From an uncultured virus (IMG/VR IMGVR_UViG_3300037258_000725) (Duplodnaviria > Heunggongvirae > Uroviricota > Caudoviricetes): DNA of 64,000 nucleotides. Below are positions 7,047 through 38,726 of the stretch, piece by piece (position 1 is the first letter of the stretch; the number at the start of each line of letters is the position of its first letter). The translations under genes and the position numbers were made by a program. Location: IMG/VR virus record IMGVR_UViG_3300037258_000725, one strand, 5' to 3'. The notes below the pieces were generated by a model, which saw nothing but the letters and a program-made list of their open reading frames with translations, was not told the DNA's origin and ran no database searches.

Positions 7047-7334
7047 GTCGGAGGTCACCCCTCCGCGGGCCCTTGTGCCTTACCTACTTCGTCAGAGGTT
7101 TCAGGCCCCTCTGCGGGCCCTCATCGCGGTCGGGTTCTTCGTCGGAGGCCCTGGTGCCCCTCCGCGGGCTCTGGGATCATTCGCCCAATGTCGGGGATGA
7201 TGGCCTCCCCGCAGGCCTGAGGCTGGCGGATTTGTCGGAGACCCCTCTCCGCGACCGGATTTGTCGGAGACCCCCCTTCTCCGCGAGCGAAGCGTGGAGC
7301 TCACGCTCATGTCGGAGATCACTTCTCCGCGAGT
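7047..7334 (-). CRISPR. Mini-array B: 7 Cas12m-type hairpin repeats
   Basis: Units start at 7047, 7091, 7141, 7190, 7234, 7263 and 7311; intervening sequences are 20, 22, 20, 17, 6 and 22 nt; stems covary (CGGAGG/CAGAGG/CGGGGA/CGGAGA). Confidence 0.85.
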
Positions 7335-7351
7335 GCCCCTCAAGCTAACAC

Positions 7352-7388
7352 AGGGAACCCGCAGCCCTTGAGGGGCTGCGGGTTCCCT
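7352..7388. terminator. Long hairpin between convergent units
   Basis: AGGGAACCCGCAGCCC-TTGAG-GGGCTGCGGGTTCCCT perfect inverted repeat. Confidence 0.6.
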
Positions 7389-7425
7389 TGGCTCTGGCCT
7401 CCAGGCTGTCAACCTGGGTCAGAGG

Positions 7426-7632
7426 CTACACCCTGGCCGTGCGCCGGTCTGCCCGCCGAGGGCGCCGGATGAAGGTGACTTCATCGGGGTCCAGGTCGTC
7501 CGTCCACCGGCTGCGCCGCAGCCGCTGAGTGGCCACTGCTGCGGCCGAGAAGCTGGTCACGTCCGGGCTGGTGACGATCCCAGCATCCGGGCGGCCGACA
7601 CGGTTGGGCTTGCGGATCAGTGCTGCATACAT
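7426..7632 (-). CDS. Small basic hypothetical protein
   Basis: AAGGAG RBS before ATG; downstream of the predicted promoter at 7675-7704. Confidence 0.55.
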   Translation of the reverse strand: MYAALIRKPNRVGRPDAGIVTSPDVTSFSAAAVATQRLRRSRWTDDLDPDEVTFIRRPRRADRRTARV

Positions 7633-7674
7633 CGGGCTGTGCTCCTTCGGGTGTGGGTGGAACCAACAAGCACG

Positions 7675-7704
7675 ATGGTAATGCCATAAGCGATATGGCG
7701 TCAA
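7675..7704 (-). promoter_or_regulatory. Sigma70-type promoter with internal GCCATA-N5-TATGGC operator
   Basis: TTGACG-18 nt-TACCAT on the minus strand; the palindrome is shared with 14992, 25886 and 59635. Confidence 0.65.
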
Positions 7705-7722
7705 CTCAGACACGCTAGGAGT

Positions 7723-8580
7723 TTGCCCGTGCCGCATGCCCCCAGGCCAACCAGGTTCGGCCGTGTCCATGTCCCTGAGCCGCTGGAGAGCCTGGGCCAT
7801 TTGCATTTCGCCACGGCAGAGCCCAGGGCCCTGGAGCCAGTCAGCCATGAACTCCGGGTGCCTGTGCTGGACCAGGAAGACCTCCTGAAGCAGGGCATCG
7901 ACACGGCCACCCTGATCAAGGGCGCGAGCGAGGTGGATGCCCTGGGCTCCTGTGTGGCCAATGCCTCCACCGCAGCCCTGTCCTTCGGGCTGACCCCAGC
8001 CGAGCTCGACGGGATGCTTCCGCCTGGCTCACCGCGGCTGAGCCTGAGTGATGCCGTGGCCGATGAGGAGTTCGCCATCTGGCTCTACCACTGCCTGACG
8101 GACTCCAGCGGGGACTCAGCGGATGAGTGGCCACCCAGCGATGTGGGCTCCTCCGGGCTGACCGCGTGCAGGTTCCTGAAGCATCAGGGCCTGATCGAGG
8201 GCTCCAGGATCGCCCATGGGGGCATCAACATCCTGAGCCTGCTCCAGGCTGGCCCCCTGATCGTGGGCCAGCCCTGGTTCAACGCCTGGATGGACCCGGA
8301 CCGGGATGGGTTCATTGACGGGGACGGCTCCCCGGAACAGCTTCAGGCTGACATCGGCAGTGGTGTCGCCGGCGGGCACGAGACCTGCTGGTATGCCATC
8401 GACTCCCTTGGCTATGACCTGGCCGGGGGGATCGACCCAGAGAAGACCGTCATCAGGTTCAGGAACTCCTGGAGCTCAGCCTGGGCGCTGAACGGGGATG
8501 GAAGGGCCCACCTGTCCACGTTCCTGGCCCTGGGGTCCTACTGCGACTACAGGCAGTTCACCTTCAGGTCTGCTGCCTAG
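7723..8580 (+). CDS. Papain-like (C1) cysteine peptidase
   Basis: 'GSCVANA' (catalytic Cys), 'GGHE' (His), 'FRNSW...W...G' (Asn). Confidence 0.85.
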   Translation: MPVPHAPRPTRFGRVHVPEPLESLGHLHFATAEPRALEPVSHELRVPVLDQEDLLKQGIDTATLIKGASEVDALGSCVANASTAALSFGLTPAELDGMLPPGSPRLSLSDAVADEEFAIWLYHCLTDSSGDSADEWPPSDVGSSGLTACRFLKHQGLIEGSRIAHGGINILSLLQAGPLIVGQPWFNAWMDPDRDGFIDGDGSPEQLQADIGSGVAGGHETCWYAIDSLGYDLAGGIDPEKTVIRFRNSWSSAWALNGDGRAHLSTFLALGSYCDYRQFTFRSAA

Positions 8581-8759
8581 GTGGGCGGGTCCTGGTCATA
8601 CCAGCCATCCGGGGACACCCGCCAGGAGCGGTCCTGGTAGGCCCTGTCGGCTAGCTCGCACTGCCGGTCAAAGCAGCCACAGCCTGGGCCTGTGCAGTGG
8701 TCATGGTCATCTTCGGCACAGGCCGGGCAGGCATTCAGGTGGCGGCGCTTGCGGGCCAT
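8577..8759 (-). CDS. Small Cys-rich hypothetical protein
   Basis: GGAG RBS; CxxC...HxHC...CxC. Confidence 0.45.
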   Translation of the reverse strand: MARKRRHLNACPACAEDDHDHCTGPGCGCFDRQCELADRAYQDRSWRVSPDGWYDQDPPT

Positions 8760-8775
8760 GGCTCCAGCATAAGCC

Positions 8776-8812
8776 AGGAGCACCCTCACCAAGTGTGATG
8801 AGGGTGCTCCTG
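8776..8812. terminator. Intergenic hairpin
   Basis: CAGGAGCACCCTCA...TGAGGGTGCTCCTG inverted repeat. Confidence 0.5.
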
Positions 8813-8824
8813 AGCGTTACCCCT

Positions 8825-8983
8825 TCAGAAGAAATACAGAATCAGGAACATGATCAGCCAGGGCAGCACCCCGGCGATGGCAGTGAGCAGGATGATTACG
8901 GCCTCCTGGGCGACCGCTTTCCAGCTTGTCTCCTTTTCCAGAAGACTCTGCCTTTTCTTGGGAAGCCCTGATACCTTCGCCAT
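8825..8983 (-). CDS. Small membrane protein
   Basis: Basic N-terminus and hydrophobic C-terminus. Confidence 0.45.
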   Translation of the reverse strand: MAKVSGLPKKRQSLLEKETSWKAVAQEAVIILLTAIAGVLPWLIMFLILYFF

Positions 8984-9479
8984 GGTCTGTCCTTTTGGGA
9001 GAACCGGACGGGCCACCGTTGGACGGCCACCCTGGTGCTAGCAGGGTGGCCGTCGTCTTGCAGGGTGAGTTGACGGTCTCGATGTCCCGCTCTCACCCCG
9101 TTGAAGGCCCTTTTGCTGGGCCACACCGTAACGCTTTGTAAGCCCTCCCCGCACGGGAAATGGTGACTATCTTCTCACCTACCGGCCGGTACGGGTCGTC
9201 AGGGCTCTGACCTGCGCATATGCCGCTGTGATGTTCGCTATAGATGCATCTTGCGATTCACATTGCCGTCACTGGCTGCGCTCAAGTAGTCACTCTGAGC
9301 ACAGTTGATTAATCAATTCAGTTACAGCGTGTCAGTTTCCGCCTGGAAAGCACAAGGGCGCCCCGCGACGAGAGGGGATCTCGCACGGGACGCCCTTGTG
9401 CTGCCCGCCCGATCACGACAGGAGCCGGATTATCCCTCCCGCTCACAGGCAACCGAGAGTTTACACCCGTTGGAGGCAT

Positions 9480-9821
9480 ATGTCAGGAGTTCTCCGTATC
9501 CTCAAGGCTGAGCCAGCAGTGATCCTCTACGCCATCAACGCGGGCCTGGCTCTGGCCATAACCTTCGGGCTGGACCTGACCAAAACACAGGAGGCGGCCA
9601 CGCTGACCATCATCTCAGCGGTGCTGACCCTGGCCGCCGCTGCCCTGACCCGGCCGCTGACTGTCTCGGTCATCACCGGGGCCCTGGCCACGGGGCTGAC
9701 TGCGGCTGGCGCCTTCGGCCTTCACCTGACCAGCGACCAGGTTGGCTCGGTCGTGTCCGTGGTGTCCCTGCTCCTCATGCATGTCCTGCGTGCAAACGTG
9801 AGCCCTGCTGCCCAGGACTGA
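9480..9821 (+). CDS. Holin-like 4-TM protein
   Basis: GGAGG RBS; 'EPAVI...FGLDLT..Q' duplicated; ends 'RANVSP', as in actinophage holins. Confidence 0.7.
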   Translation: MSGVLRILKAEPAVILYAINAGLALAITFGLDLTKTQEAATLTIISAVLTLAAAALTRPLTVSVITGALATGLTAAGAFGLHLTSDQVGSVVSVVSLLLMHVLRANVSPAAQD

Positions 9822-9940
9822 CCTAGACTGCCTGCCCTACCCCTGAAATGGGGCAGGGCAGCAGAACGCCCCGGCTGGCTCGGGCATCCCTCCCCCAGGG
9901 GATGCCGGGCCGGCCGGGGCTGTTTTTGCGTGCCTGGAGC

Positions 9941-10564
9941 TCAGCCCGCCATGGCGGCGGGGGTGGCCTGGACTTCGGTGCTGGCGGAGGGCAGGTGGGA
10001 GCCGTTGCCCTTGCACCGGAAACTGCCCTCCGCGTTGGCCCATCGCAGGGACCCGCGGGGCAGGCAGATCCTGGCCTTGCACCTGGAGCACCGGGGCTGG
10101 AGGAAGACCGCGGCGGGAACCTCCTCGCCCACCAGGAGCCTGGTCAGGCTGAGCATGTCCTCATGGTGGCTGGAGACGTAGAAGTCCTGGGCGGTCTTCA
10201 GGACCCGCTCCAGCACCACATGGGGCAGGTCCCGGCCAGCTAGCCGTTCGAGCTCGGCGGCCTGGTGCTCATCGCACATCCGCAGGACGTGGTTCTCACC
10301 AGGGCCCGCCCACACCAGCGTGCCCACAGCGGCCAGGAGGCAGGCATCTTCCTGGCAGGGGATCGCATCGCAGAAGTATGAGCACGGCTGGTAGGCCGTG
10401 GCCAGGCCCAGCTTCAGCAGGTGCTTGTTCATCTCACTGAAGCTGGGCACCTGGACGGGTGCCTGGTCCTTGACCATGACCTCCAGGCCTGGTGAACCAT
10501 CCAGGGCCGGGTAGGCAATAACCATGGTGGCCTGGACAGGAACAAGCTCAGCGGGCTGAGTCAT
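9941..10564 (-). CDS. Cys-rich hypothetical protein
   Basis: Long ORF with several CxxC/CxxH motifs. Confidence 0.5.
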   Translation of the reverse strand: MTQPAELVPVQATMVIAYPALDGSPGLEVMVKDQAPVQVPSFSEMNKHLLKLGLATAYQPCSYFCDAIPCQEDACLLAAVGTLVWAGPGENHVLRMCDEHQAAELERLAGRDLPHVVLERVLKTAQDFYVSSHHEDMLSLTRLLVGEEVPAAVFLQPRCSRCKARICLPRGSLRWANAEGSFRCKGNGSHLPSASTEVQATPAAMAG

Positions 10565-10691
10565 TAATCATCTCTTTCCAGGGAGGCACCAGTACACCGC
10601 AGCACATCAGGGCTAAATGCCACAAGGGAGCGGAGAATAAGACTCATGCATCCCCCTTTCCCGTAAGTGAGTAACAGGCATCAAGAAGTTT

Positions 10692-10985
10692 TCAGGCTTC
10701 CATCCCAGGCCAGCCATAGCGTGGCCCAATGCCCTTGCCCGCGCCCCTGCGGTGGGCAAGATTACGCACGGTCACGCCTGCGGCCTGGCCTTCCGGGGCC
10801 AGTTTCCAGGCTTCCTGGATGTGCCTGATCTCCTCCTCGTAGAACCGCCTGTGACCACCTGGAGTGCGGGCCACCCGAATCCAGCCCTTGTTTGCCCAGC
10901 GAGTGACTGTTCGCTGGTCAACGTTCAGCAGGTCGGCCACTTCGGGCCCTTTGAGAAGCCGGGGACCAGAGATGGGCTGGGGCAC
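10692..10985 (-). CDS. BldC-family MerR-like/excisionase HTH regulator
   Basis: 'LL...EVA.LL.VD.RTVTRWA..G....RTPGGHRRF.E.EI' closely matches the BldC signature. Confidence 0.8.
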   Translation of the reverse strand: MPQPISGPRLLKGPEVADLLNVDQRTVTRWANKGWIRVARTPGGHRRFYEEEIRHIQEAWKLAPEGQAAGVTVRNLAHRRGAGKGIGPRYGWPGMEA

Positions 10986-11104
10986 GGGTGTTCCTTCACA
11001 GGATGCCCGGCATCAACCCTCCCGGGCGGTTACGGTGTGTGATGGTTACTGAATGCGACACACCATACACCTAGTGCGACCGTTTGCGAAGGAGCTTGTT
11101 TTCC

Positions 11105-11341
11105 TCAGTGCTCGTGCGTGTCCTTGAAATGCAGATAATCCGCCCGAATCTTCATCCCGAGTTCAGTGGATGTTGCCGCTTTGAGCACTATTGAGCGGTC
11201 ACGTTTCGCCTGGGCTATCCAGGTAGTTTTGCCCCGGCTTTCATCTCGCCTGATGTCATAGGCCCTATGCCAGTGGAGCTTGAGGTGAGCCAATTCAGGG
11301 TCATCACCCAGGGCTGGGTCCGTGCCCTCCGTCACCACCAT
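11105..11341 (-). CDS. Hypothetical protein
   Basis: Co-directional ORF in the par operon. Confidence 0.5.
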   Translation of the reverse strand: MVVTEGTDPALGDDPELAHLKLHWHRAYDIRRDESRGKTTWIAQAKRDRSIVLKAATSTELGMKIRADYLHFKDTHEH

Positions 11342-11987
11342 CTGTCCCCCCAGTCTCGGGGAGGCCGCTCAGCCTGGCCAGCAGGTTGGCCACAGCCATC
11401 GCCGCCACCTCCCAGGTTGAAATTCTGTCATCCAGCAATGGGAGCCGGTCAGATATTGACCCTAGCTTGGCCGCATTGTCCTGGTGCAGCCTCCTGCCTG
11501 ATCCGGTCGTCCGGGTCCGGCCAAAGCCATGCCCGGCCTGCCACTCCAGCCCCAGCTTGCCGGCTTCAGCCAGGCTGGCAGGCACGGAATCGATGGCCGC
11601 GTTGATCACATGGCAGGGGTTGAGGAGCCGGTCCTGGGTCTGGGCCTTCTGGACGGCCACCAGCCTGGTGACCTCCTCCCAGATCTCGGCGGGCAGCCTG
11701 AGGCCATAGACCACCCAGTCCCCAGGGCGGCGCCGGGCTGAGTCCCTGGCCGCCATGACCGCCGCCCAGGCCTCCTCCTGGCCCTGGGGCAGGGCCACGG
11801 CCTTGCGGGTCTTCCGGGGCCGCCTGGGCCCGCTGGGGCTCTGCTTCCTGGCCCGGTCGGTCACTGTCCGGACGGCCACGGCGGCCGGTGGGGCCAGTTC
11901 GGTGACTCCCGCACTGACAGCCTGGTCTGGGGTCTGGGTGAGTCGCTGATCCTGGACGTAAGCGGCCATGCCGCGCCTGGGGCTCAT
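11304..11987 (-). CDS. ParA-partner protein (candidate centromere-binding)
   Basis: ATGA overlap with parA; disordered basic N-terminus, RHH-like 'GLRLPAEIWEEV'. Confidence 0.5.
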   Translation of the reverse strand: MSPRRGMAAYVQDQRLTQTPDQAVSAGVTELAPPAAVAVRTVTDRARKQSPSGPRRPRKTRKAVALPQGQEEAWAAVMAARDSARRRPGDWVVYGLRLPAEIWEEVTRLVAVQKAQTQDRLLNPCHVINAAIDSVPASLAEAGKLGLEWQAGHGFGRTRTTGSGRRLHQDNAAKLGSISDRLPLLDDRISTWEVAAMAVANLLARLSGLPETGGTDGGDGGHGPSPG

Positions 11988-12748
11988 CGCAGACCCGAGA
12001 CGTAGGCATGCAGGGGCGGGCTCATCTTTACGAGCTCCAGGAAGACACGGAGCAGATCGGACCTGGCATTGCCCGCTCCCATGGCCTCGATGTCAGTGAT
12101 CGGGATGCCATCGCTAATGGCCTTGGCGTGGGCCACATACCGGCGCACCGTGGCCTGGAGGCATGGGATTCCAGTCTGGAGCATCGCGGAGCCCTCCTCA
12201 TCGCTGGCATGGACCTGGTAGCCGCTCAGGAACTGCCGGGCGTCAAGTTCCAGGCTCTTGTGCCCTGGGGCGATGCCGTTGAGCAGAACCTTGGCCCTGC
12301 TGCCGCGGCGGACCACAAAGTCAATGGTGTCCACGGTGGGCGGCAAGGGCAGCGGGCCCATGTCCGATGGCACGATAATCTCATCGGCGTAAGGGATGAC
12401 CTGCTCAACCACGCCCCCTTCAGCCAGGGAGCTCGGTGTGTCCACCAGGATGAGCGGGACTCCGGTCACGTCCCTGAGGTACCTCAGTTGGGTGGGGTCT
12501 GGCTCATGCACGCAGGCGTACTTGCTGGGGCTGAGCATGGCCTGGGTGGCCCGGAAGGTGCTGGCTTGCCGGTCGGCATCCACGACCAGGGTGTTGACCC
12601 CTACCTCGGCGCTCATGGCACCAAGTCCCATGGTGACCGCTGTCTTGCCTACGCCTCCCTTGCCGTTGATGAGTACCCAGATAACTGGCTGGTCGGGTGG
12701 TGCGGCCCTGGCTCTCCTGGCCGGCCGCTGGGCTGTGGGTGTAGTCAT
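11984..12748 (-). CDS. parA: ParA family partition ATPase
   Basis: Deviant Walker A 'KGGVGKT', 'LVVDADRQAS', 'ILVDTP'. Confidence 0.9.
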   Translation of the reverse strand: MTTPTAQRPARRARAAPPDQPVIWVLINGKGGVGKTAVTMGLGAMSAEVGVNTLVVDADRQASTFRATQAMLSPSKYACVHEPDPTQLRYLRDVTGVPLILVDTPSSLAEGGVVEQVIPYADEIIVPSDMGPLPLPPTVDTIDFVVRRGSRAKVLLNGIAPGHKSLELDARQFLSGYQVHASDEEGSAMLQTGIPCLQATVRRYVAHAKAISDGIPITDIEAMGAGNARSDLLRVFLELVKMSPPLHAYVSGLR

Positions 12749-12865
12749 GGTGCCGCATCATAGAACAGGTGGCCCAGTCCGCGATATATCCCTCAGGCCT
12801 ATTGGCGTGTCGCCATCTGGGCTCAATACCTGCCCGGTGGGTTAGCCCCCCATGTCCTGACTTGG

Positions 12866-12916
12866 TGTTCGTCTGTTCGTCTGCGTGTTCGTCTCAGTGT
12901 TCGTGTGGCTGTTCGT
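12866..12916. repeat. Five TGTTCGT direct repeats (parS/iteron-like)
   Basis: At 12866, 12874, 12886, 12898 and 12910; upstream of parA. Confidence 0.6.
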
Positions 12917-12928
12917 CCGGTCAAGCAC

Positions 12929-13153
12929 ATCAGAGATTGCCTCTCTGCGGGCGTTGACAGGCCATGGCACCTGTGTATCTCCATCTGAGGCAGCCCCTCA
13001 GCGGGCCCGCATGCTGCCACTCGGCTGGTGGTTTATCTCATCGGTGATGTGCCTCACCGCGAGCCTGTGACTGTGATCCGTTCGTCGGAGATCTACCTCT
13101 CCGCGGGTCCGTCCTGCTCAACTAGGAGGTCGGAGGGTGAGTCCTCCGCGAGC
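12929..13153 (-). CRISPR. Mini-array C: 5 Cas12m-type hairpin repeats
   Basis: Units 12929-12952, 12983-13006, 13040-13064, 13084-13108 and 13129-13153; spacers 30, 33, 19 and 20 nt; compensatory stems CAGAGA, CTGAGG, CGGTGA, CGGAGA, CGGAGG. Confidence 0.8.
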
Positions 13154-13443
13154 CTTATCCCGGCCGGGTCCAGTTCGATCCGGCCCGCCACCACATCATC
13201 CACGAACATGCTGACCGCGTGCGCGCCAGTCAGGCCCGCCCGGTTGCAGCGCTGGTAGTACTCCTGCCAGACCTCAGGGGTCTTGCGGAGGTGAAAGGAC
13301 CGAGGAATGGCCGCCATGGCCCCCGAGGGTACTACTGAGGCCGATGGGGCTGGGGCCCCCGGTTGCGCCACTTCGGGGGTGGGGGCCCCAGCCTGGGGAG
13401 TCGAGAGGGCGGCGAGGTAGTCCCCTCCTGGCCCTGAGGTCAA
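13093..13443 (-). CDS. Possible RHH/RelB-like small regulator; 3' end runs into array C
   Basis: 'FHLR..PEVWQEY...C...GLT...AVSMFV..VV' RHH-like; start uncertain (ATG at 13317 is an alternative). Confidence 0.4.
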   Translation of the reverse strand: MTSGPGGDYLAALSTPQAGAPTPEVAQPGAPAPSASVVPSGAMAAIPRSFHLRKTPEVWQEYYQRCNRAGLTGAHAVSMFVDDVVAGRIELDPAGIRLAEDSPSDLLVEQDGPAER

Positions 13444-13651
13444 TGCCCAATCCCCTGGGCAGCCAGGCAGGACATCCCCTCCAGCACGCGCTCTCTAAGG
13501 CAGGTGACCCACCCCTAGTTGGGGCCCTGCCCATGGGGCCTGAGCCTAACCCACGGTGACTACTGCGTCACAGGATTGGTTCAGAAGTCTTGCTGACTGC
13601 CAGTGACCAGGTGCTACGATCCGTGATCATGCCGTTGAGAAGGGCGGTCAT

Positions 13652-14140
13652 ATGCGGAAGCTCCTGAATGGCCCCGTGAAAAACGCGGCGCTGTACGCCC
13701 GCCTCCTTCAGTGGATCGATGAGACCAGGGCTGGTGAGCAGGTCACTGAGCCCAGGCTCCGGGGCATCCGCTGGCACCAGGGCACCTGGTACAGCGGGCC
13801 ACCAGGTGGCCGGGTGTGCTGCCTGGGCTCAGCCGCTGTCCTGGCCAGTGGCTACCGGCTCACCATCAAGCGTGGCTACGTCACCATCGTCCGGCCCTGG
13901 TACCGGCCAGGATGGACGGGCGGGACGGTCCTGGCCCGCAAGGTGCTGGGCCTGACCAGGTATGAGGCCAGCCTCCTGTTCGCGCCCAACATCACCAGGA
14001 GGGCCCTGGAGGCCGCCCGGAGGTGCTTTGACGAGGGCAGGCCCATCACGGGTGCCATCCTGACCGCCGCTGACGCACCCTCCATCCTGGTCAGGACGGC
14101 TCCCCAGCAGGCCCTGGATGACAGGCTCTGCGTCCGGTAG
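13652..14140 (+). CDS. Hypothetical phage protein
   Basis: 'WHQGTW...CCLG..AV...ARKVLGL...EA.LLF' pattern seen in actinophage proteins; followed by a hairpin at about 14150-14190. Confidence 0.55.
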   Translation: MRKLLNGPVKNAALYARLLQWIDETRAGEQVTEPRLRGIRWHQGTWYSGPPGGRVCCLGSAAVLASGYRLTIKRGYVTIVRPWYRPGWTGGTVLARKVLGLTRYEASLLFAPNITRRALEAARRCFDEGRPITGAILTAADAPSILVRTAPQQALDDRLCVR

Positions 14141-14198
14141 GAGCAATGCCAGAGGGCCGGCCACCAGCGGTCCTGGTGGCCGGCCCTCTGCTGTGCCT

Positions 14199-14924
14199 CT
14201 AACGCAGAGCCTGCTGGGTGTTCCTGACCCGGCCCTGGCCGATGTCAGCGCGCTGGCCCTGGGCATAGCCGTCCCGGTAGCCAGTGCCTGAGTAGGTGAT
14301 CCTGGCCGTGCGGGTCAGGGGATAGGCCCGCTCAGCCTCACCCTTGATGACCTGAGTCCGGTCAGCCAGCACCAGGGCCACACCAGTGGACCCAGCGGCC
14401 TGCTCCTGGGTGGCCTGCTGGGTAGCTGCCGCCTCTGCCTCCCGGACCCTGGCAGTGACCGAGGTGGCGAACCCCAGCATCCAGGACCGCCGCCAGGCCT
14501 TCAGGCTCCTGACCCAGAGCGGAATCTCGGCCGCGGCCAGGCCATGCCACATCTGGACCAGCAGGGATGTGTAGAGCACGTCCAGCCGCTCCAGGTCCGA
14601 CTCGTAGCCGAACACATGGACCTTGAGCCCGTCCGTGGTGTGCAGCATGATGGCCTGGCAGCGGAGGGCCGCGGCCAGCCCGCACAGCAGGTGGGCCTTG
14701 ACCCTGGCCCAGGGGTTGTCCACGTCCAGCATCCTGCTGGAGGGCCTGTCCGTGTCCGGCTTGGCCTGAGCCAGCAGGGCCCGGTCAATGCCGTACTTGG
14801 CCATGAGCTCAGCGGCCTTGGCGGTCAGGGCCTCGGCCTCGGGCGGGGTGACTGACTCATCCTCAGCCTTGGCCAGGAGCTTGCGCACTCGGTCCAGGAG
14901 CTTGCTTGATGCTTCCGTGCTCAT
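14199..14924 (-). CDS. DUF2786 domain protein
   Basis: 'LDRVRKLLAKAE...EAEAL..KAAELMAKYGID' and 'GY..G.RADIG'. Confidence 0.85.
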   Translation of the reverse strand: MSTEASSKLLDRVRKLLAKAEDESVTPPEAEALTAKAAELMAKYGIDRALLAQAKPDTDRPSSRMLDVDNPWARVKAHLLCGLAAALRCQAIMLHTTDGLKVHVFGYESDLERLDVLYTSLLVQMWHGLAAAEIPLWVRSLKAWRRSWMLGFATSVTARVREAEAAATQQATQEQAAGSTGVALVLADRTQVIKGEAERAYPLTRTARITYSGTGYRDGYAQGQRADIGQGRVRNTQQALR

Positions 14925-14991
14925 CTGTCTCCTCTGGGGGGTTGCCCGGGGCCGCCTGCCTGCGGAGATGTTCCCGGGGTGGGTGTCATGC

Positions 14992-15023
14992 TTGACACTA
15001 TGCCATACTGGATATAGCGTCAA
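14992..15023. promoter_or_regulatory. Overlapping divergent promoters with GCCATA-N5-TATRGC operator
   Basis: Minus: TTGACG-17-TAGTGT; plus: TTGACA-17-TAGCGT. Confidence 0.6.
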
Positions 15024-15062
15024 CCCATATTATCCAGATCGCCTACACAGGAGGAGCACGAT

Positions 15063-15521
15063 GTGAGCGGAGACAGTACCCAGGAAGACCTGGCCATCAC
15101 GGCGGTGGGAAGCATAGCCCTTCACCCCCAGTGGCTGACCGGCCTCCAGCTTGACCTGCTGGAGCGCACTTATGGGCTCGCCAGTGACCAGCGGTGCCGC
15201 CAGTGCGGTGCACCACTTCAGTTCGCCACCACGACCGGAGCCGGAAGTGAGTATGCCTGCTCCAGTGATGATGCCAGCCCCATCAAGAATGCGATCGGTG
15301 GGCATGCATGGCGGAGACGGCTTGACCACTACCAGAACAGCCGCTGGACTGACCGCGGGCTGGCCAATGCCGCAGTGATCCTGCTGATTCAGGAACTCCG
15401 CTGGTGGCGGGCCCAGGCCGAGGAGCCCGAGCAGGAGGAGCCCCCAGTGGAGGGCTATGACCCAGGGCCTGAGGTGGATGACATGGGCGGTCTGTCCGAG
15501 GTCAACCCACTCGATCCATGA
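15063..15521 (+). CDS. Hypothetical protein with CxxC
   Basis: AGGAG RBS; coherent ORF. Confidence 0.5.
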   Translation: MSGDSTQEDLAITAVGSIALHPQWLTGLQLDLLERTYGLASDQRCRQCGAPLQFATTTGAGSEYACSSDDASPIKNAIGGHAWRRRLDHYQNSRWTDRGLANAAVILLIQELRWWRAQAEEPEQEEPPVEGYDPGPEVDDMGGLSEVNPLDP

Positions 15522-15692
15522 GCGGCCACAGTCACGGCAGCCCCAGCCTGGCCTGCACCTATGAGGCCACCTGGGGCCGTCCATGCCCATTCGCCGGGCA
15601 GCAGTATTTCCCGGCCTGGGCCTGCTTCCGGTGCGGCCAGGAGCCCCCTGAGCACTTGCCTGGATGCCGCGGGCAGGCTAGAAACTGATCAC

Positions 15693-15968
15693 ATGAGTGG
15701 CGATGGCGGCACTTCCTCACTGGAGGATCTCCTGAAGCGGGAGGGGCTCGCTGACCAGGTGGGCCCTGACTTCGGGCCCAGGGTGCTGGAGCTCATCTGC
15801 ACCCTGACCCGGATGAATGCCTGGGACTGGCTGTCACACAGGCTCAGTGACTCTGACCGGGAGCTCCTGGCCGACCTGGTGGAGGCCCACAACCATCGCC
15901 TTGAGCAGGGCAAAACCCCGCCCCGAACCTACTGGGTCTTCTTCAGCCGCTGGTGGCGGCACCAGTAA
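15693..15968 (+). CDS. Hypothetical protein
   Basis: Coherent ORF ending 'RWWR' upstream of cas12m. Confidence 0.45.
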   Translation: MSGDGGTSSLEDLLKREGLADQVGPDFGPRVLELICTLTRMNAWDWLSHRLSDSDRELLADLVEAHNHRLEQGKTPPRTYWVFFSRWWRHQ

Positions 15969-16001
15969 AGACGGCGAATCTCCTGACACGCCCCGTGAGC
16001 A

Positions 16002-16018
16002 TGCGGTAACTTACCGCA
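16002..16018. promoter_or_regulatory. Perfect palindrome TGCGGTAA-C-TTACCGCA (candidate operator)
   Basis: 8-bp arms with a 1-nt centre, just upstream of the cas12m leader repeat. Confidence 0.4.
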
Positions 16019-16022
16019 ACGT

Positions 16023-16048
16023 GCCCGCGGAGGGGCAGCACCTCCGAC
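16023..16048 (+). CRISPR. Single Cas12m-type repeat in the effector's 5' leader
   Basis: GCCCG-CGGAGG-GGCAGCA-CCTCCG-AC ending 30 nt before the ATG at 16079. Confidence 0.75.
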
Positions 16049-16078
16049 CTGTCTGTCGATTTCCTGGGGGGCTGTCCC

Positions 16079-18058
16079 ATGCCCAAGCGTGTTTCCCGTG
16101 CTGAGCGCGAGAACCTGAGGGCCATCGTCTACAAGTATGAGCTCGCCCACTACGTCGAGCCTGAGATCACCGATGCCATCGTGGGCCAGCTTCACCTGGC
16201 CAATGACGCCTGGAACCTGCACACCCAGATTGAGCGGGAACGGGATGAGGGTGAACGCCAGTTCTGGGCCAGCCACAAGACCGTAGGCCCGCTCATGGCC
16301 GCCCGGGACGTGGCCCAGGATGAGGTTGACCGGCACTATGCGGCCATCAGGGAGCAGAAGCAGCACGACCGCTCCGCTACCCCTGACCCTGAACTGGTCA
16401 CCCAACTGAAGGAAGCCAGGGACAAGTCCACAGCCTCCCGGGAGGCCTTCAAGTCGGCCCGCAATGCGGCCAGGCCCCATGTCCGCGGTGACCTCATGAA
16501 GATCAGTGAGGTCAGGGATGCGGCCCGCAAGCATGCCTACAAGGTGGCCACCGAGAGCGGGCTGTACTGGGCCACGTTCAACATCGTGGCCGCCCACCAC
16601 AACATCGCCAACAAGCAGGTCATCAAGGCCCGGACCAGGGGAGCCCGGGCGGAGATGCAGTTCCACCGCTGGGATGGCACGGGCACGCTCAGGGTCCAGC
16701 TACAGCGCGAGGAAGGTGACCCGGCCCGGACCCTGGAAATGCTGTCCATGTGTGCTGGCTCCAGGCTGGTGGCCACAGGTGAGGTTGAGGTCAAGAAGAT
16801 GGCCGCGCCGGCGGGGGAGTTCCCCCGCCTGATCGAGGTCTGTTTTGCCAACTGCCCGCACTGTGACAGGCGGGTGCCCCTCGGGGAGGATGGCCTGACC
16901 TCTGACCACTACCAGCCTGGCAACAAGTGGCGGAACATGCTCAGCATCGAGCAGCCGTTCATGGACCCGGCCACCTGGGCAGCCACCCCGCGCAAGGACA
17001 GGATTCATGTCAACGTCAAGTTCCGGGTGGGCCAGGGCGACCAGGAGACCATCCTGACCCTGCCCATCAGGATGCACCGGCAGATTCCCCTCGATGCCGA
17101 TATCGCTGAGGTCCAGCTAACCCGCCGCCGCACCGGGCCAGACTTCAGGATGTTCATGGAGTTCATGATCCTGGTGCCCATGCCCCCGGCCAGGGCTGAG
17201 GGGGAGCTCGCGGCTGCCCACCTGGGCTGGCGGGTCCTGCCCAGCGGAGACATCAGGGTGGCGGTCACCACCACCCCCAGGGCCAGGATGCTGCCCATGG
17301 ACCTGGCCCGCAACGGGTACGTCCACTACCACGGTGACTGGGCTGAGGTGGTCATCCCTGTGGAGCGACGGGACCACCAGGCCAAGATGCAAGATCTCCA
17401 GTCCAAGCGGGACAAGCACACCGGGGAGACCAAAGCATGGCTCCAGGCCTGGGTCAGTGAGCACCCTGACCGCAAGGACGCCATTGACCCTGGGGGCAAG
17501 CTGCATGCCTGGAGGTCAGCCGGTGCGTTCTCCAACCTGCTGCGGGACCTCATGCTGGGCTACACCGATGACCCAGTGCTGTCTGAGGTGATCACCCACC
17601 TGGAGGAGTGGCAGGAGTACGACGAGCACCTGTGGCGCTGGGCAGCCTGGGGAGGGGCCCGGGACAACCGCAAGCGGCTGGATGCCTTCCGGCACTTCTC
17701 GGCCTGGCTGTGCCAGGACGCGGCCATGGTCATCGTGGACCAGTGGCAGATCACCAACCGCACCCCTGACATCACCGTGGCTGAGACCCCCCGGGAAGCC
17801 AGGGCCAGGGCCAATGCCCGCCTGGCCTCCCCGGGCAAGTTCAGGGAGGCCATGGAGAAGGCGGCCGGGAAGGTGGGTGCCCGGGTCATGGAGCCTGAGG
17901 AGCTCGCCTACGGCATCCACACTGGCTGTGGGGGAGAGCTCGCCCGCAACGACCGCACAAAGTCCGTCATGGTGATGTGTGGCGGGTGCGGGAACATGGT
18001 GGACCAGGACGTGAACGTGCTCAGGGCCCAGATCCTGGCTGCCACACAGTCCGCCTGA
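16079..18058 (+). CDS. cas12m: Cas12m-like (type V-M/V-U1) RNA-guided DNA-binding effector with inactivated RuvC
   Basis: Collinear with recalled MmCas12m motifs: 'GLYWATFN', 'HRWDGTGTLRVQLQR', 'KWRNML', 'MHRQIPLDADI', RuvC-I 'AAHLGWR' (His for Asp), RuvC-II 'VIVDQ', 'ASPGKFR', Zn finger 'HTGCG...CGGCG', RuvC-III 'DQDVN'. Confidence 0.88.
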   Translation: MPKRVSRAERENLRAIVYKYELAHYVEPEITDAIVGQLHLANDAWNLHTQIERERDEGERQFWASHKTVGPLMAARDVAQDEVDRHYAAIREQKQHDRSATPDPELVTQLKEARDKSTASREAFKSARNAARPHVRGDLMKISEVRDAARKHAYKVATESGLYWATFNIVAAHHNIANKQVIKARTRGARAEMQFHRWDGTGTLRVQLQREEGDPARTLEMLSMCAGSRLVATGEVEVKKMAAPAGEFPRLIEVCFANCPHCDRRVPLGEDGLTSDHYQPGNKWRNMLSIEQPFMDPATWAATPRKDRIHVNVKFRVGQGDQETILTLPIRMHRQIPLDADIAEVQLTRRRTGPDFRMFMEFMILVPMPPARAEGELAAAHLGWRVLPSGDIRVAVTTTPRARMLPMDLARNGYVHYHGDWAEVVIPVERRDHQAKMQDLQSKRDKHTGETKAWLQAWVSEHPDRKDAIDPGGKLHAWRSAGAFSNLLRDLMLGYTDDPVLSEVITHLEEWQEYDEHLWRWAAWGGARDNRKRLDAFRHFSAWLCQDAAMVIVDQWQITNRTPDITVAETPREARARANARLASPGKFREAMEKAAGKVGARVMEPEELAYGIHTGCGGELARNDRTKSVMVMCGGCGNMVDQDVNVLRAQILAATQSA

Positions 18059-18060
18059 AC

Positions 18061-18127
18061 GCCCGCAGAGAGGTCTTGTCTCTGACGCCGCTTGGCTGTT
18101 AAGCCCGCGGAGAGGCTGGTCTCCGAC
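18061..18127 (+). CRISPR. Mini-array directly downstream of cas12m: 2 repeats, 16-nt spacer
   Basis: Starts 2 nt after the stop: GCCCG-CAGAGA-GGTCTTG-TCTCTG-AC, GCCGCTTGGCTGTTAA, GCCCG-CGGAGA-GGCTGG-TCTCCG-AC. Confidence 0.85.
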
Positions 18128-18648
18128 CGCTCACCTTCACCCCGGCTGGGCATGACGAAGGCCCCGCCAGATCGTCACCCAGCAGGGCCCTCATCCACCC
18201 ACACCCAAGTGCGCAACCCAGTCAGTGTGTGCCGACCGTGTAGAGCACGGTGTATCGGGCACCCACCCGAGAGCGCCCGACTTCTGCATGGTAGCCCACG
18301 GGTCCACGCTGGCACCACTGAACAGGAGGCACTCCAGTAAATTCAGAGCCCTTTCCATGGCTGGTTTAAGCGGTTTATCTCACCCCGTGGCCTGATTACG
18401 CTACGTTATGGCTGAATTGCCACAGGGGCAAAAACTTCCTGTAAACCATCCCCAGGTCAAGGGCGTCATACAGGCGCGGGCCCGGAATCAATAAAGCCGT
18501 GACAGGTTTGTGACCTGTGGGAACTGCATAAATGCTCGAAATGCAGTTACCGAGAGTGCTAAGTTGCTTCCGGACTGCGACTGAGGTACCCAGTCACTTT
18601 CCGTGTTCGCCTGGGGGTCCAGGCACCACACCCAAGGAGGAAACTCAA

Positions 18649-26256: not shown

Positions 26257-26833
26257 GCTCCCAGGCCGCCTGCTGGCCGGCCAGATCAAGCCTGGCATGG
26301 GCCAGACCCCAGCGGTTGCCCTGGTCAACCCCAAGTTCGGCCACAATGCAGGCGCGGCCCTCAGGGCCTGTGCCGCCTTTGGTGCCAGGCAGTTGTGGAT
26401 CACTGGAGAGCGGGCCCTGGAGGAATGGCAAGACCGTGGCCGGCTGCCCCGTGAGGAGCGCATGCGGGCCTACGCCAATGTGGATGTGTTCCTGGGTGAC
26501 TACTTCTTCGATGCGTTCACTCCTGATGTGGTGCCCGTGGCCGTGGAGATCCGGCGCTCTGCTGAGATCCTGACCACCTTCGTGCACCCAGGGAGGGCCC
26601 TGTACGTGTTCGGGCCTGAGGATGGCAGCCTGGGCTCAGCCACCCTGCATAAGTGCCACCGGGTGGTGATGATCCCCAGCGACCACTGCCTCAACCTGGC
26701 CACCGCGGTCACCCTGGTCCTGGGCCACCGCCGCATGCAGCGCCAGATGCTGAACCTGGAGCCTCTGTACCCCAGTGACCAGACCCTGGATGAGCAGCGG
26801 GGCTGGCTCGACTGCGATAAGCCGCTGAGGTGA
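26237..26833 (+). CDS. SpoU/TrmH-family SPOUT RNA methyltransferase
   Basis: 'NAGAALRACAAFG', 'VFGPEDGSL', 'IP...CLNLATAV'. Confidence 0.88.
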   Translation: MAKKALELPGRLLAGQIKPGMGQTPAVALVNPKFGHNAGAALRACAAFGARQLWITGERALEEWQDRGRLPREERMRAYANVDVFLGDYFFDAFTPDVVPVAVEIRRSAEILTTFVHPGRALYVFGPEDGSLGSATLHKCHRVVMIPSDHCLNLATAVTLVLGHRRMQRQMLNLEPLYPSDQTLDEQRGWLDCDKPLR

Positions 26834-27372
26834 TGACCATGACCATCCTGACCATCCTCATCGGTGCCGCGGGCTCAGGCAAGTCCACTGTCGCGGCCGA
26901 GGGGTGGAAGCCCACCCAGATCGTGAGCTCAGACAGCATCCGGGCCATGATCTGTGACAACCCCAGTGACCAGAGCGCCAGCAGGGTGGCTTTCAGGCTC
27001 CTCCACATCATCGTCACAGCCCGGCTCCAGCGTGGGCTTGACACCGTGGTCGATGCCACCAGTGCCCACGAAAACGACAGGGCCCAGTTGCTGGACATCG
27101 CCCGGGAGACCGGGATGGGGGTCACGCCCGTGGCCGTAGTGATGCGCACCAGCCTGGAGGAGTGCCTGAGGCGCAACCGGCTGCGGCCTGAGGCTGCCCC
27201 AGGCCAGGCGTATGGCCGCAGGGTGCCAGAGGTGGCCCTGACCCGGCAATTCGACCGGATTCAGCGGGACCTGCCAGGCCTGAAGGCTGAAGGTTTCGCT
27301 GAGGTGATCTTTGTTGATTCCAGGCTGCCCGAGGTGGCCGCTGCTAGTGGAGAGAGGCAACGTCATGGCTGA
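26830..27372 (+). CDS. AAA_33 / polynucleotide-kinase-like kinase
   Basis: 'GAAGSGKST', 'VSSDSIR', 'TVVDAT', 'CLRRN..R...RRVP'. Confidence 0.85.
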   Translation: MMTMTILTILIGAAGSGKSTVAAEGWKPTQIVSSDSIRAMICDNPSDQSASRVAFRLLHIIVTARLQRGLDTVVDATSAHENDRAQLLDIARETGMGVTPVAVVMRTSLEECLRRNRLRPEAAPGQAYGRRVPEVALTRQFDRIQRDLPGLKAEGFAEVIFVDSRLPEVAAASGERQRHG

Positions 27373-36421: not shown

Positions 36422-36426
36422 GGAGC

Positions 36427-36669
36427 TCAGCCGCCTGCCAGTGGCCCCGTGGCGGTGTACTCCCCCACCATCGCGGAGAACTCGCCTGCCTGCACCGGGT
36501 CATTGACGGGCCCGGTGTGGATCACATGATGCCGCCTGAGGTCAGCGAACACCTTCGCTGCCCTGGCCACGGTCGCTGGCTTGTCACTGGTCCAGCGGAC
36601 GGCTGGCTCTGGCTGGCCATCGACATAAATCGCGCCATCCACAACCTTGGTGTCCATGAGCACTGTCAT
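36427..36669 (-). CDS. Hypothetical protein
   Basis: Co-directional ORF with RBS. Confidence 0.45.
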   Translation of the reverse strand: MTVLMDTKVVDGAIYVDGQPEPAVRWTSDKPATVARAAKVFADLRRHHVIHTGPVNDPVQAGEFSAMVGEYTATGPLAGG

Positions 36670-36769
36670 TGTCCGGATAGCCCCCTTCTTTGTTAGCCCC
36701 CTCTGGCCTTCATTGCCAGATTGTTTTCCGAAGGTAGCACCTACGTGTTCCCGCTACTATGCCGTTTTC

Positions 36770-37126
36770 ATGAGAACACAAAACATGGACAGGGACCAGT
36801 TGCTCGACAAAGTACGAGAGAACCGGGCAAATCACGAAAGTGCATACCAGGAAGCCTCCAGAATTTACCGGCAGGAGGCTGCCCAGTGGTACCGGGGGGA
36901 GGCTGAGCGGATCGAGCAGGACAGCGACCTTGCCCCCCGGAAGCACTGCCCACTGCCGGTGCCCCAGTCCTACGTGAGCCACTATGACCGGGCCATCAGG
37001 ATGCTGGAATGGTCGATTGACTCAGCCGTGCCCGTGGATGAGCAGACTTTCGCCCAGCTTGTCCTGGATGACTGGGATTGGTCTGGGGAGTGGCGGCGCA
37101 CCATGAGCAATTACGGCACGCGGTGA
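36770..37126 (+). CDS. Hypothetical phage protein
   Basis: 'LL..V.ENR..H...Y.EA...P.SY...YDRAI.MLEW...F.QLVLDDWDW'. Confidence 0.6.
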   Translation: MRTQNMDRDQLLDKVRENRANHESAYQEASRIYRQEAAQWYRGEAERIEQDSDLAPRKHCPLPVPQSYVSHYDRAIRMLEWSIDSAVPVDEQTFAQLVLDDWDWSGEWRRTMSNYGTR

Positions 37127-37242
37127 ACCTTGTGACCACCCTGGTACGTGTGTAGCTTTGTCCGCAAGCTGCCGGGCGGGCCTCTCCCCCGGCTGGCCCG
37201 CATGGGCCGGGGCTCCCGCGGAGCCCCGGTTCCGTGCTCCAG

Positions 37243-37782
37243 CTAGTCCCACATGTCCGGCAGGTTGCGGGCTAAGACCCGGACCGACTCCTGGGCCTGC
37301 TGACAGTGCAGGCAGGGCAGCACATCAGCCAGGAGGCTGAGCGACCCCTCAGCGGCTCCCATGTAGCCCTCCTGCCGGTCCTGCCACTCTGCGGGGGTCT
37401 CACCATCCACATGCTCCCAGTGGCCCTCATAGGCCAGCAGGGGCCCGCTGATGTGGCCAAGGAGCTCATCCCACTCCTCCGAGGTCATGCCGTTGGGGAA
37501 GCCGTGGCCATAGCGGCGCAGGTGCTCGATGCTCTCCCCGATGAGCCTGGCCAGGTAGCCATCCAGGCTCCAGGTGTCCGGGTCGGCCCAGCCCCGCCTG
37601 GACCGCTGCCAGCGCCACCTCAGCCGGTGCCAGGGCCGGGGCCTGACCAGGTTCCGGGCCGTGAACCTGAGTTTCCGCCAGCCGGTGATGGCGGCCCGCA
37701 CTGGCAGTGGCCTGCCCGCATGCCGCTGCTTGCGTTCCTCACACTCCGCCAGGAACGCCTGCCAGGAATGGTGGCCGCTCAC
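37243..37782 (-). CDS. Hypothetical phage protein
   Basis: 'WQR..RGW...DTWSLD.YL...EEW...L...WD'. Confidence 0.6.
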   Translation of the reverse strand: MSGHHSWQAFLAECEERKQRHAGRPLPVRAAITGWRKLRFTARNLVRPRPWHRLRWRWQRSRRGWADPDTWSLDGYLARLIGESIEHLRRYGHGFPNGMTSEEWDELLGHISGPLLAYEGHWEHVDGETPAEWQDRQEGYMGAAEGSLSLLADVLPCLHCQQAQESVRVLARNLPDMWD

Positions 37783-37999
37783 CGTCTCCCCCCTGCCTGC
37801 CGGGATACACGCGCCTGGGCTCGGTGCCATAGTGGGCCTGGACTTGATCCAGGGTCCAGCCAATGACCCCCGCCCGCTCCATTATCGGGGCTGCGGCGAC
37901 CACTTGGCCGTCCAGGACCATGAATCCGTAAACGGCCCGGGGCTTGACTATGGCGAACAATTCCGCATTGTCAGGAATGCGCCGGGCATGCTGGGGCAT
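37739..37999 (-). CDS. Hypothetical protein
   Basis: Abuts the dcd stop; 'DGQVVAAAPI...IGW'. Confidence 0.4.
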   Translation of the reverse strand: MPQHARRIPDNAELFAIVKPRAVYGFMVLDGQVVAAAPIMERAGVIGWTLDQVQAHYGTEPRRVYPGRQGGDGERPPFLAGVPGGV

Positions 38000-38595
38000 T
38001 AGAGGGCGGTTTCAGGGAGCTTGTCAATTGTTTTTGGCACACGCCGGGCCTCGGTGGGTCCCCGCTGCCACTGGTAGCTGGACCTGAGGGCAGGTGAGCC
38101 ATAGGGGTTGCGGGCCTGGCTGGTTAGCTGGATGAAGCAGATCTGGGCGATCTGCATGCCCGCGGTCAGGTCGATGGTGTACGGGCTCACATTCACTAGC
38201 TCCAGGGTGATCTCCCCCTGAAACCCAGGGTCGATAAACCCGGCCGTGTGCGGCAGCAGGCCCAGCCGGCCCAGGGAAGACTTGCCTTCCACGTAGGCGG
38301 CCACCTCATCGGAGACGGTGATCCACTCCATGGTGGAGCCCAGCACGAACTGGCGTGGCCGCAGCGGGAACACCTGGCCTTCAGCCAGGGTCACCAGCCT
38401 GGTCGAGGGCAGGTCCCCGGCCAGGGGGTTGATGTGCTTGCGTCGGTGCCACCAGTGGGGCCGGGGGAAGATCCGGAGCTCATGGCTGAGCCGAACGTCG
38501 ATGCTGGAGGGCTGGAGGCAGTCCTCCCCAACCGGGCCGACCCACAGCCGCCCGGATTCCATTCCGGCAGTGATCTCATTGTCCGCAAGGAGCAT
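37999..38595 (-). CDS. dcd: dCTP deaminase
   Basis: 'QPSSIDVRL', 'EGKSSLGRLGL', 'TAGFIDPGFQGEITLEL', 'YGS...Y..Q.GPT'. Confidence 0.93.
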   Translation of the reverse strand: MLLADNEITAGMESGRLWVGPVGEDCLQPSSIDVRLSHELRIFPRPHWWHRRKHINPLAGDLPSTRLVTLAEGQVFPLRPRQFVLGSTMEWITVSDEVAAYVEGKSSLGRLGLLPHTAGFIDPGFQGEITLELVNVSPYTIDLTAGMQIAQICFIQLTSQARNPYGSPALRSSYQWQRGPTEARRVPKTIDKLPETAL

Positions 38596-38649
38596 GCCAG
38601 AATGCTAGATGCCAGCCAGCCCTGGGCTGACTAGAACACGCCCAGCAGG

Positions 38650-38726
38650 GCCCGCAGAGAGGTTTGCCTGAATCTCTGACATCAGGACCGACCGAGGAAG
38701 CCTCGCGGAGAAGGGGATTCTCCGAC
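38650..38726 (+). CRISPR. Mini-array: 2 repeats, 20-nt spacer
   Basis: GCCCG-CAGAGA-12 nt-TCTCTG-AC, ATCAGGACCGACCGAGGAAG, CCTCG-CGGAGA-AGGGGAT-TCTCCG-AC. Confidence 0.8.

Follow-up and report, generated by a model that had tools for sequence, protein, structure and literature searches.

A phage Cas12m gene lies among scattered, mutually divergent repeat units that are probably shortened CRISPR RNA handles kept as a pseudoknot

The DNA of an uncultured Caudoviricetes virus (IMG/VR record IMGVR_UViG_3300037258_000725), analyzed here as a single stretch of 64 kb that we refer to as the window, contains 26 copies of a unit of ~26 nucleotides (nt), which lie in nine places spread over 44 kb, from 5240 to 49338, together with a gene for a homolog of Cas12m, the effector of type V-M CRISPR systems. 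These units are very likely Cas12m handles, and we consider probable the overall explanation that they are shortened CRISPR RNA (crRNA) handles of the phage's own Cas12m, scattered through its DNA and altered by compensated drift of their stems. Whether the sequences that follow the terminal AC of the units are true DNA-targeting guides is a more evenly balanced question as far as sequence can tell. The drift of sequence with retention of the RNA fold suggests a built-in set of fixed guides. While the pseudoknot fold was already known, because the units match the published Cas12m2 crRNA scaffold, its compensated, shortened and scattered layout in a phage is a new variation on a known system. 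A preliminary description of this DNA had placed the family at 7047 to 38726, a range that proved too narrow at both ends.

Read in the RNA sense, each unit consists of a 3-nt leader, a C, a G, a 6-nt stem strand, a loop of 4-12 nt, the second 6-nt stem strand and a final AC, and the first three loop nucleotides, the only loop bases that are kept, pair with the leader. The base after the leader is C in all units except one, which has T; the G (position -22) is found in 25 of 26 units, A(-2) in all 26 and C(-1) in 22, the remaining ends being AT (three units) and AG (one). The handles are shortened and differ from each other in stem, loop size and spacing. The most frequent stem is CGGAGA/TCTCCG (12 units), followed by CGGAGG/CCTCCG (five), CAGAGA/TCTCTG (three) and CTGAGG/CCTCAG, CGGTGA/TCACCG and CGGGGA/TCCCCG (one each). 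All of these compensated stems, and every individual copy named in the preliminary description, are present and read as it described, and two stems are added to its list: CAGAGG/CCTCTG (two units) and CAGGGG/TCTCTG (one unit, with two G-U pairs). A strict hairpin pattern matched 30 hairpins, 23 of which are family members, and a looser scan contributed units 5286 and 7190. With filters off, a covariance model of 25 units gave 26 matches at 25.3-37 bits, the next best candidate reaching 13.5 bits, and the pattern CGCGGAG-N5-14-CTCCGAC occurs 16 times in the window versus 0.00 times expected from 100 shuffles. No Rfam family matches the units at E up to 1 in the part scanned (4500-21000), and a comparison of contigs from two soil metagenome runs revealed no informative unit differences. 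The units and the cas12m gene are positioned as follows.

5240-5264 and 5282-5308, plus strand: two units between two plus-strand genes, the second with two G-U pairs in its stem
7047-7070, 7091-7118, 7141-7169, 7190-7216, 7234-7256, 7263-7288 and 7311-7334, minus strand: cluster A, seven units
12929-12952, 12983-13006, 13040-13064, 13084-13108 and 13129-13153, minus strand: cluster B, five units
16023-16048, plus strand: single unit, its AC 30 nt ahead of the cas12m start codon on the same strand
16079-18058, plus strand: cas12m, encoding a type V-M effector homolog of 659 amino acids (P0001), identified by PDB and PADLOC matches
18061-18086 and 18103-18127, plus strand: two units that begin 3 nt past the cas12m stop codon, same strand
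20250-20273 (AG end) and 20298-20324, minus strand: two units downstream of a minus-strand open reading frame (ORF) at 20347-20610
38650-38680 (12-nt loop) and 38701-38726 (leader CCT, loop AGG), plus strand: two units
45875-45898, minus strand: single unit in the sense of the transfer RNAs (tRNAs), with tRNA-Met 161 nt before it and tRNA-Lys 52 nt after it
46584-46625, minus strand: unit 46602-46625 with 18 nt of unique sequence, exactly filling the 42-nt gap between two tRNA-Ser genes
47834-47858, minus strand: degenerate unit (25.5 bits) with A for the otherwise invariant G, 4 nt from tRNA-Thr
49250-49338, minus strand: two units, 49316-49338 and 49272-49294, whose handles are identical; the unique sequence after them measures 21 and 22 nt, respectively

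Because the 6-bp (base-pair) stem was required to find the copies, its complete pairing (156 of 156 cells in the 26 units; in a 25-unit alignment, both sides change at three of the six positions) is in part a product of selection by the search, and the leader-loop helix, which played no part in finding the copies, provides the only unbiased test. In alignment A3, which comprises 25 units and was controlled by shuffling and by sliding the pairing partner by 1-3 columns, the whole pseudoknot pairs in 96.0% of 225 cells versus 86.6% after shuffling (0 of 500 shuffles reach the observed value) and 34-53% after sliding. The leader-loop helix of this alignment pairs in 66 of 75 cells, compared with 78.0 +/- 2.6% in shuffles (0 of 500) and 27-55% in the slid controls. 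Covariation over all aligned copies, which the preliminary description had led us to expect, was also found: leader and loop pair in 69 of 78 cells and pair fully in 18 of the 26 units, a level reached by 2 of 20000 shuffles, although such shuffle counts are not probabilities, since the units share ancestry. Leader-loop pairs with a change on both sides (three in A3) were matched by 92 of 500 shuffles and are not significant, and a fourth leader-loop pair is unsupported (10 of 22 cells). The individual leader/loop combinations reported previously (GCC/GGC, ACT/AGT, CCT/AGG, ACC/GGT and, by way of a G-U pair, GCT/GGC) were all confirmed. In addition, the 26 units have 10 G-U cells and no A-C cells in the leader-loop helix, and two G-U cells in the stem, which supports the earlier contention that the G-U pairs work only in the leader-to-AC orientation and fits selection on an RNA read in this direction.

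Two pairs of units bear on how the copies arose. The sequences that follow units 7234 and 7263 have a common start, neither unit being fully paired between leader and loop, and units 49272 and 49316 have identical handles followed by different sequences. These pairs show that units have been copied; they do not show the origin of the guides. The previous suggestion that the putative guides may be old, or made by recombination, rather than products of Cas1-Cas2 fits the data: even inside a single cluster the repeats vary in stem, loop length and spacing, and a scan with NCBIfam found no Cas1, Cas2 or Cas4 among the 76 called ORFs of the window.

The protein encoded amid the units, P0001, was not named in the preliminary description; it is related over almost its whole length (residues 28-656) to the Cas12m2 structures 8hhl and 8hio (E 4e-36). 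In a sequence search of the PDB it also matched 8pm4_A, deposited as 'Transposase' (E 1.9e-53), and 23vw, 'DNA-binding protein Cas12m' (E 4e-24), and it matched the Cas12u1 model of PADLOC at E 5.2e-91, V-U1 being the former name of V-M (PMC11013384). The gene is flanked by three units on its own strand, one located 30 nt upstream and two directly downstream. Alignment places the RuvC residues of P0001 at H381, D554 and D642/D644, which are conserved among homologs, and H-D-D is the pattern of the Cas12m enzymes (Mm, Go) that bind DNA without cutting it (PMC11013384); the RuvC site of P0001 is therefore predicted to be of the kind that does not cut double-stranded DNA. At the aligned positions of His269 and Arg270 of Cas12m2, P0001 has H333 and R334, which are invariant or nearly so in 16 homologs. 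P0001 also has an insertion at residues about 226-281 with a cysteine cluster, C-x4-C-x2-C, which is longer in two relatives, P0004 and P0005, and missing from two others, P0002 and P0003.

In the crRNA of Cas12m2, the pairs are G(-23) with A(-2) and C(-22..-17) with G(-8..-3), and A(-24) is flipped out, while the 5' stem stacks on the pseudoknot, His269 and Arg270 read C(-1), G(-36)-U(-30) are disordered, and the heteroduplex with target DNA spans 17 bp (PMC10442227). The window units correspond part for part to the ordered portion of this scaffold, with the G:A pair, the 6-bp stem, C(-1), one unpaired base and the 5' stem, which is 3 bp in length here; the 5' portion that the units lack is the counterpart of the disordered G(-36)-U(-30). 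The presence of a Cas12m gene amid the units, their match to the solved scaffold and the repeats of V-M arrays described next all bear out the earlier proposal that selection acts on a type V crRNA scaffold.

Canonical V-M arrays with a period of 71-73 nt lie beside distantly related Cas12m genes (L001/L016, L002, L003, L005/L007, L008 and L012), and their repeats finish GCC-N-G-stem-GGC...-stem-AC, the same architecture as that of the window units, with unrelated stems (CGTGGA, CTCGGG, CGCGGG, CTCGAT and CTCGTT). Within the single array of L012, leader and loop covary (GCT/AGC and GCC/GGC). Among 84 distinct units from 9 sources, which were chosen by eye from a noisy scan according to clustering and position and not according to leader-loop pairing, 226 of 252 leader-loop cells pair versus 194 after shuffling (0 of 20000 shuffles reach the observed value), with 6 A-C cells. 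A layout like that of the window was found at two Cas12m loci that are only distantly related: the actinophage L004, which also encodes terminase, portal and Lsr2, contains 11 or more units, whose compensated stems are of eight kinds, and in L009 about 20 units recur at periods of 35-45 nt, with loops of 3-8 nt. Four consecutive units of the latter (L009:7373-7508) are even more compact, with periods of only 35-40 nt and the leader/loop combinations ACG/CGA (2 of 3 cells pair) or CTC/GAG. A quick tree places the proteins of the window, L004 and L009 in three separate well-supported clades, so the layout is not a one-off. No units were seen at L006, L010/L011, L013, L014 and L017, and the covariance model R1 was too specific for most of the relatives' units. 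The closest proteins to P0001 are P0002 (50% identity) and P0003 (40%); alignment-based scans yielded only relatives of 31% identity or less, plasmids only Cas12m genes of about 25% identity, and a search of IMG/VR with P0001 alone found nothing. Matches to the handle pattern in IMG/VR (at least 119 stretches) are read as chance because all 80 loci listed have a single match, and no sister phage was among the matches listed.

Five of the 26 units lie within an array of 39 tRNA genes on the minus strand (38797-51573), out of 40 tRNA genes that ARAGORN called in the window, and three of the five are flanked exactly by tRNA ends. Unit 46602 begins 0 nt from the 3' end of the upstream tRNA and its 18-mer stops at the 5' end of the downstream tRNA, while units 49316 and 49272 with their trailing sequences exactly fill the 89-nt gap between tRNA-Gly and tRNA-Lys. 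Because these units abut tRNA ends, enzymes that trim such ends would, judging by position only, release RNAs of crRNA size. In engineered polycistronic tRNA-guide RNA (gRNA) arrays, tRNA-flanked guides are freed by RNase P and tRNA 3' end enzymes. Whereas that arrangement is a laboratory design, the one in the window is natural, with exact abutment as the sole pointer to processing by tRNA enzymes, and it is possible that the tRNA-flanked units constitute a natural tRNA-guide array. Unit 47834, with A in place of G and only 4 nt left before the next tRNA, is probably defunct and without a usable guide. The array as a whole covers nearly all amino acids, has several genes only 0-2 nt apart and is a large set for a contig of ~72 kb. 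The call outside it, an 82-nt tRNA-Gly(tcc) on the plus strand (11777-11858) within a minus-strand ORF, is probably false, since Rfam, searched over 4500-21000 with E up to 1, finds no tRNA in that range.

The units differ in their relation to neighboring genes, and 15 of the 26 share the orientation of the gene or tRNA immediately upstream. Cluster B is upstream of parA and has the same direction; its inter-unit stretches are 20, 19, 33 and 30 nt, and three of its units have the AT end. Cluster A is a stand-alone minus-strand block with a plus-strand gene on either side and unique stretches of 22, 6, 17, 20, 22 and 20 nt between its units. The pair at 38650-38726 is antisense to the dCTP deaminase gene and the tRNA-Met that adjoin it; because cluster A and this pair are antisense to both of their neighbors, they must be transcribed separately. 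On the minus strand, a promoter-like site (7704-7675) lies upstream of cluster A and of a perfect inverted repeat of ~15 bp (about 7354-7388), which is found just upstream of the cluster in the RNA sense. Promoter-like and terminator-like sites are no more frequent in the DNA than in shuffles, and none of the terminator-like sites listed in 4500-21000 falls within a unit. The stem CGGAGG of unit 5244 (5240-5264) contains GGAGG, and an in-frame ATG follows directly after its AC (5246-5267; ORF 5238-5639).

We propose that the units would be transcribed within phage operons, the tRNA array or the two stand-alone blocks, and that Cas12m would bind each handle and assist its excision, the RNA ends in the tRNA array being set by tRNA-processing enzymes. 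In the folded handle, the 3-bp leader-loop stem would stack on the 6-bp pseudoknot stem, which would be closed by the G:A pair, and the final C would be read by the protein. Because Cas12m appears to read shape and a few fixed bases, the stems could drift by compensation and the rest of the loop could vary in length. The 15-24 nt past the AC would then guide the nuclease-inactive (H-D-D) Cas12m to matching DNA beside a protospacer-adjacent motif, where the bound protein would block transcription or replication of host genes or of rival mobile elements. Consistent with this, the unique sequence between an AC and the leader that follows it measures 15-24 nt in 12 of 15 cases (6, 30 and 33 nt in the others), and where a tRNA 5' end marks the limit it measures 18 and 22 nt, spacings close to the 17-bp heteroduplex of Cas12m2. 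The G+C content of the putative guides (56.6%) is somewhat lower than that of other non-genic DNA (63.5%), a difference too small to carry meaning.

Several observations weigh against this explanation. P0001 is only about 25-30% identical to the enzymes that have been studied, so that its binding of the handles is a prediction from sequence comparison; loop bases that contact Cas12m2 in the structure are not conserved in the window units; and the loops vary from 4 to 12 nt, compared with 9 nt in 37 of 38 canonical repeats. Eight units (7234, 7263, 13129, 20250, 45875, 46602, 49272 and 49316) are incompletely paired between leader and loop; the preliminary description was correct about the misfits that it named (7234, 13129 and 49272) and undercounted them, giving three instead of eight. 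Units 7263, with 6 nt to the next unit, and 47834, with 4 nt to a tRNA, are followed by too little sequence, and therefore not every unit can carry a guide. Searches for targets were likewise negative. Within the window, 17-mers with up to 4 mismatches identified no target (the best match had 2 mismatches), and exact 11-mers gave 4 matches without a common flanking motif. The longest seed, a 13-nt match of the guide of unit 20250 to 2681-2693, and a 12-nt match of the guide of unit 5286 to the anticodon arm of tRNA-Gly (49376-49387) were taken as chance. Cluster A had no target in a sample of 401 Actinomycetota genomes, a negative that rests in part on 15 unpublished genomes included in the sample (G228, G050, G090, G270, G176, G241, G003, G345, G020, G150, G084, G393, G338, G320 and G122). 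In this search 373 of the 401 genomes matched with E values no higher than 10, the lowest being 2e-4. Because the flanks of the six top loci are unrelated and each departs from the 24-nt guide by 2-9 mismatches, we regard these loci as chance matches in GC-rich coding DNA. Exact patterns of 2 of the about 24 usable guides had 0 matches in IMG/VR, and among GenBank phages cluster A gave two matches at E = 4 and cluster B none, with no target in either case; nor did any of these searches yield a protospacer-adjacent motif.

The failure to find targets in the window, the Actinomycetota sample, IMG/VR (two guides) and GenBank phages would be expected if the handles acted in cis, as sites at which Cas12m binds or cuts phage transcripts and the tRNA precursor and so influences their processing, stability or timing, the post-AC sequences being mere linkers. 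Such a role would also suit the 15 units that share the direction of an upstream gene or tRNA, the placement of units just before a start codon (16023-16048), just after a stop codon (18061) or flush with tRNA ends, the lack of room for a guide at 7263 and 47834, and the processing of pre-crRNA by Cas12m within the repeat (PMC11013384). We nevertheless consider it unlikely, because clusters of 5-7 units with unique spacers of 17-22 nt are difficult to account for if one cut site sufficed, cluster A and the 38650-38726 pair are antisense to their neighbors and hence outside any mRNA, and the sizes of the spacers agree with the known length of the Cas12m heteroduplex.

Lone repeats of phages that mimic CRISPR repeats and inhibit Cas proteins are known (PMC10651486), and since some window units have no usable guide, they might be thought to be solitary repeat units or RNA anti-CRISPRs that titrate the Cas12m of the host or of a rival element. 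This is improbable, as the phage has a Cas12m of its own that lies between units, the sequence after most units is as long as a guide, and handles that differ from each other would be poor mimics of one host repeat; solitary repeats and RNA anti-CRISPRs are distinguished by the lack of a matching effector in the phage, and here the effector is encoded beside the units. Least credible of all, and in our judgment very improbable, is a role unrelated to CRISPR, in which the units are elements resembling repetitive extragenic palindromes, terminators or hairpins that hide ribosome-binding sites. The units are intergenic and without an Rfam match (4500-21000, E up to 1), and their stems contain GGAG or GGAGG, CGGAGG/CCTCCG resembling a Shine-Dalgarno sequence and its complement. 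However, the relatives' unrelated stems occur in the same architecture beside Cas12m genes, the invariant G...AC frame and leader-loop covariation would be useless to a terminator, the terminator-like sites listed in 4500-21000 are all located outside the units, and five units are in the tRNA array, where a ribosome-binding site is needless.

Among known systems, the one encoded in the window most resembles type V-M as described for MmCas12m/Cas12m2 and GoCas12m (PMC10442227, PMC11013384), with which it shares a homologous effector with an H-D-D RuvC site, the absence of adaptation genes (here from the 76 window ORFs), a guide length (putative here) of about 17-20 nt and a handle having the G:A pair, C(-1), the 6-bp pseudoknot stem and, stacked on it, a short 5' stem. 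Whereas the 36-nt repeats of known V-M systems are nearly identical and form one regular array with a period of 71-73 nt, the window has 26 non-identical units of ~26 nt in nine places, separated by gaps of 6-33 nt. The mini-CRISPR arrays and solitary repeats of viruses (PMC11656645, PMC10651486) are likewise short or lone viral repeats without adaptation genes, but in the passages covered they mostly use or inhibit host Cas proteins and copy the host repeat, while the window phage supplies its own effector and compensatory changes have made its repeats dissimilar. One of these sources, a review (PMC11656645), mentions prophages with Cas12m. Myxophage MV-1 (bioRxiv 10.64898/2026.09.14.751636) similarly encodes a Cas12m without cas1, cas2 and cas4, and no target was found for it, but its repeats follow one consensus, in a single array with eight spacers, and its triad is D-E-D; the passages of that report that were covered make no mention of scattered or divergent repeats. 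VIPR (bioRxiv 10.64898/2026.10.15.759431, 10.64898/2026.04.26.720920) and TldR are alike in concept, being RNA-guided silencers of phages in which a non-cutting DNA binder uses fixed guides, some of them encoded far from the protein gene. Their proteins and guide RNAs have no relationship, or a distant one only, to those of the window, VIPR relying on GGY/NN tracts with non-contiguous pairing and TldR on a long TnpB-type RNA. Searches of the literature, supplements excluded, brought up no account of Cas12m handles that are scattered and unlike one another, or of crRNAs flanked by tRNAs in nature.

The window represents 64 of the 71.8 kb of its contig, ~7.8 kb lying outside it, has a G+C content of ~65% and is phage-like; soil metagenome runs contain its DNA, and no RNA run was found that does. 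Genes other than those already mentioned include the following.

6117-7028: endolysin gene
9396-9821: holin gene
11984-12748, minus strand: parA

Additional products are a tail-fibre-like protein, a DarB-like antirestriction protein and a cytosine methyltransferase, and the presence of genes for an Lsr2-like protein and a regulator of the Sco1979 family indicates an actinobacterial host. A SpoU-type RNA methyltransferase adjoins a protein with a polynucleotide kinase (Pnkp-like) domain (26237-27372), and the two may form a pair for the repair of RNA or tRNA in this tRNA-rich phage. The ORF at 39979-40953 (minus strand) has a pyruvoyl-type histidine decarboxylase domain, which is unusual for a phage. 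GenBank phages showed no DNA match to 52000-64000 and a single weak protein match.

A more far-reaching idea, which we advance tentatively and regard as rather doubtful, is that the phage operates a hard-wired multi-guide silencing program, in which about two dozen fixed guides would act at specific stages against host genes or rivals and which would recur in Cas12m elements. Guides encoded in operons, in the two stand-alone blocks and in the tRNA array would serve different stages of infection, some being released by RNase P and tRNA 3' end enzymes and not by a Cas protein. The handles would have diverged because identical repeats over 44 kb would invite deletion by recombination, and the layout in the L004 and L009 clades would reflect a recurrent lifestyle of Cas12m and not the decay of a normal array.

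CRISPR arrays are usually recognized by their identical repeats, and repeats that are kept as a fold, as here, would be missed by standard array finders, so that phage Cas12m genes would look as if they had no guides or nearly none. If functional, the units of the window would represent a natural mutational scan of the Cas12m scaffold, revealing the range of variation that it tolerates, and would aid the design of minimal guides and of guides that do not recombine with each other. The tRNA-flanked units would provide a natural precedent for the release of guides by tRNA processing. Should only the role in cis be true, a Cas protein would have been recruited for the maturation of phage RNA. Conversely, functional guides would mean that a CRISPR effector is run without adaptation as a fixed regulatory program, as VIPR and TldR are in phages.

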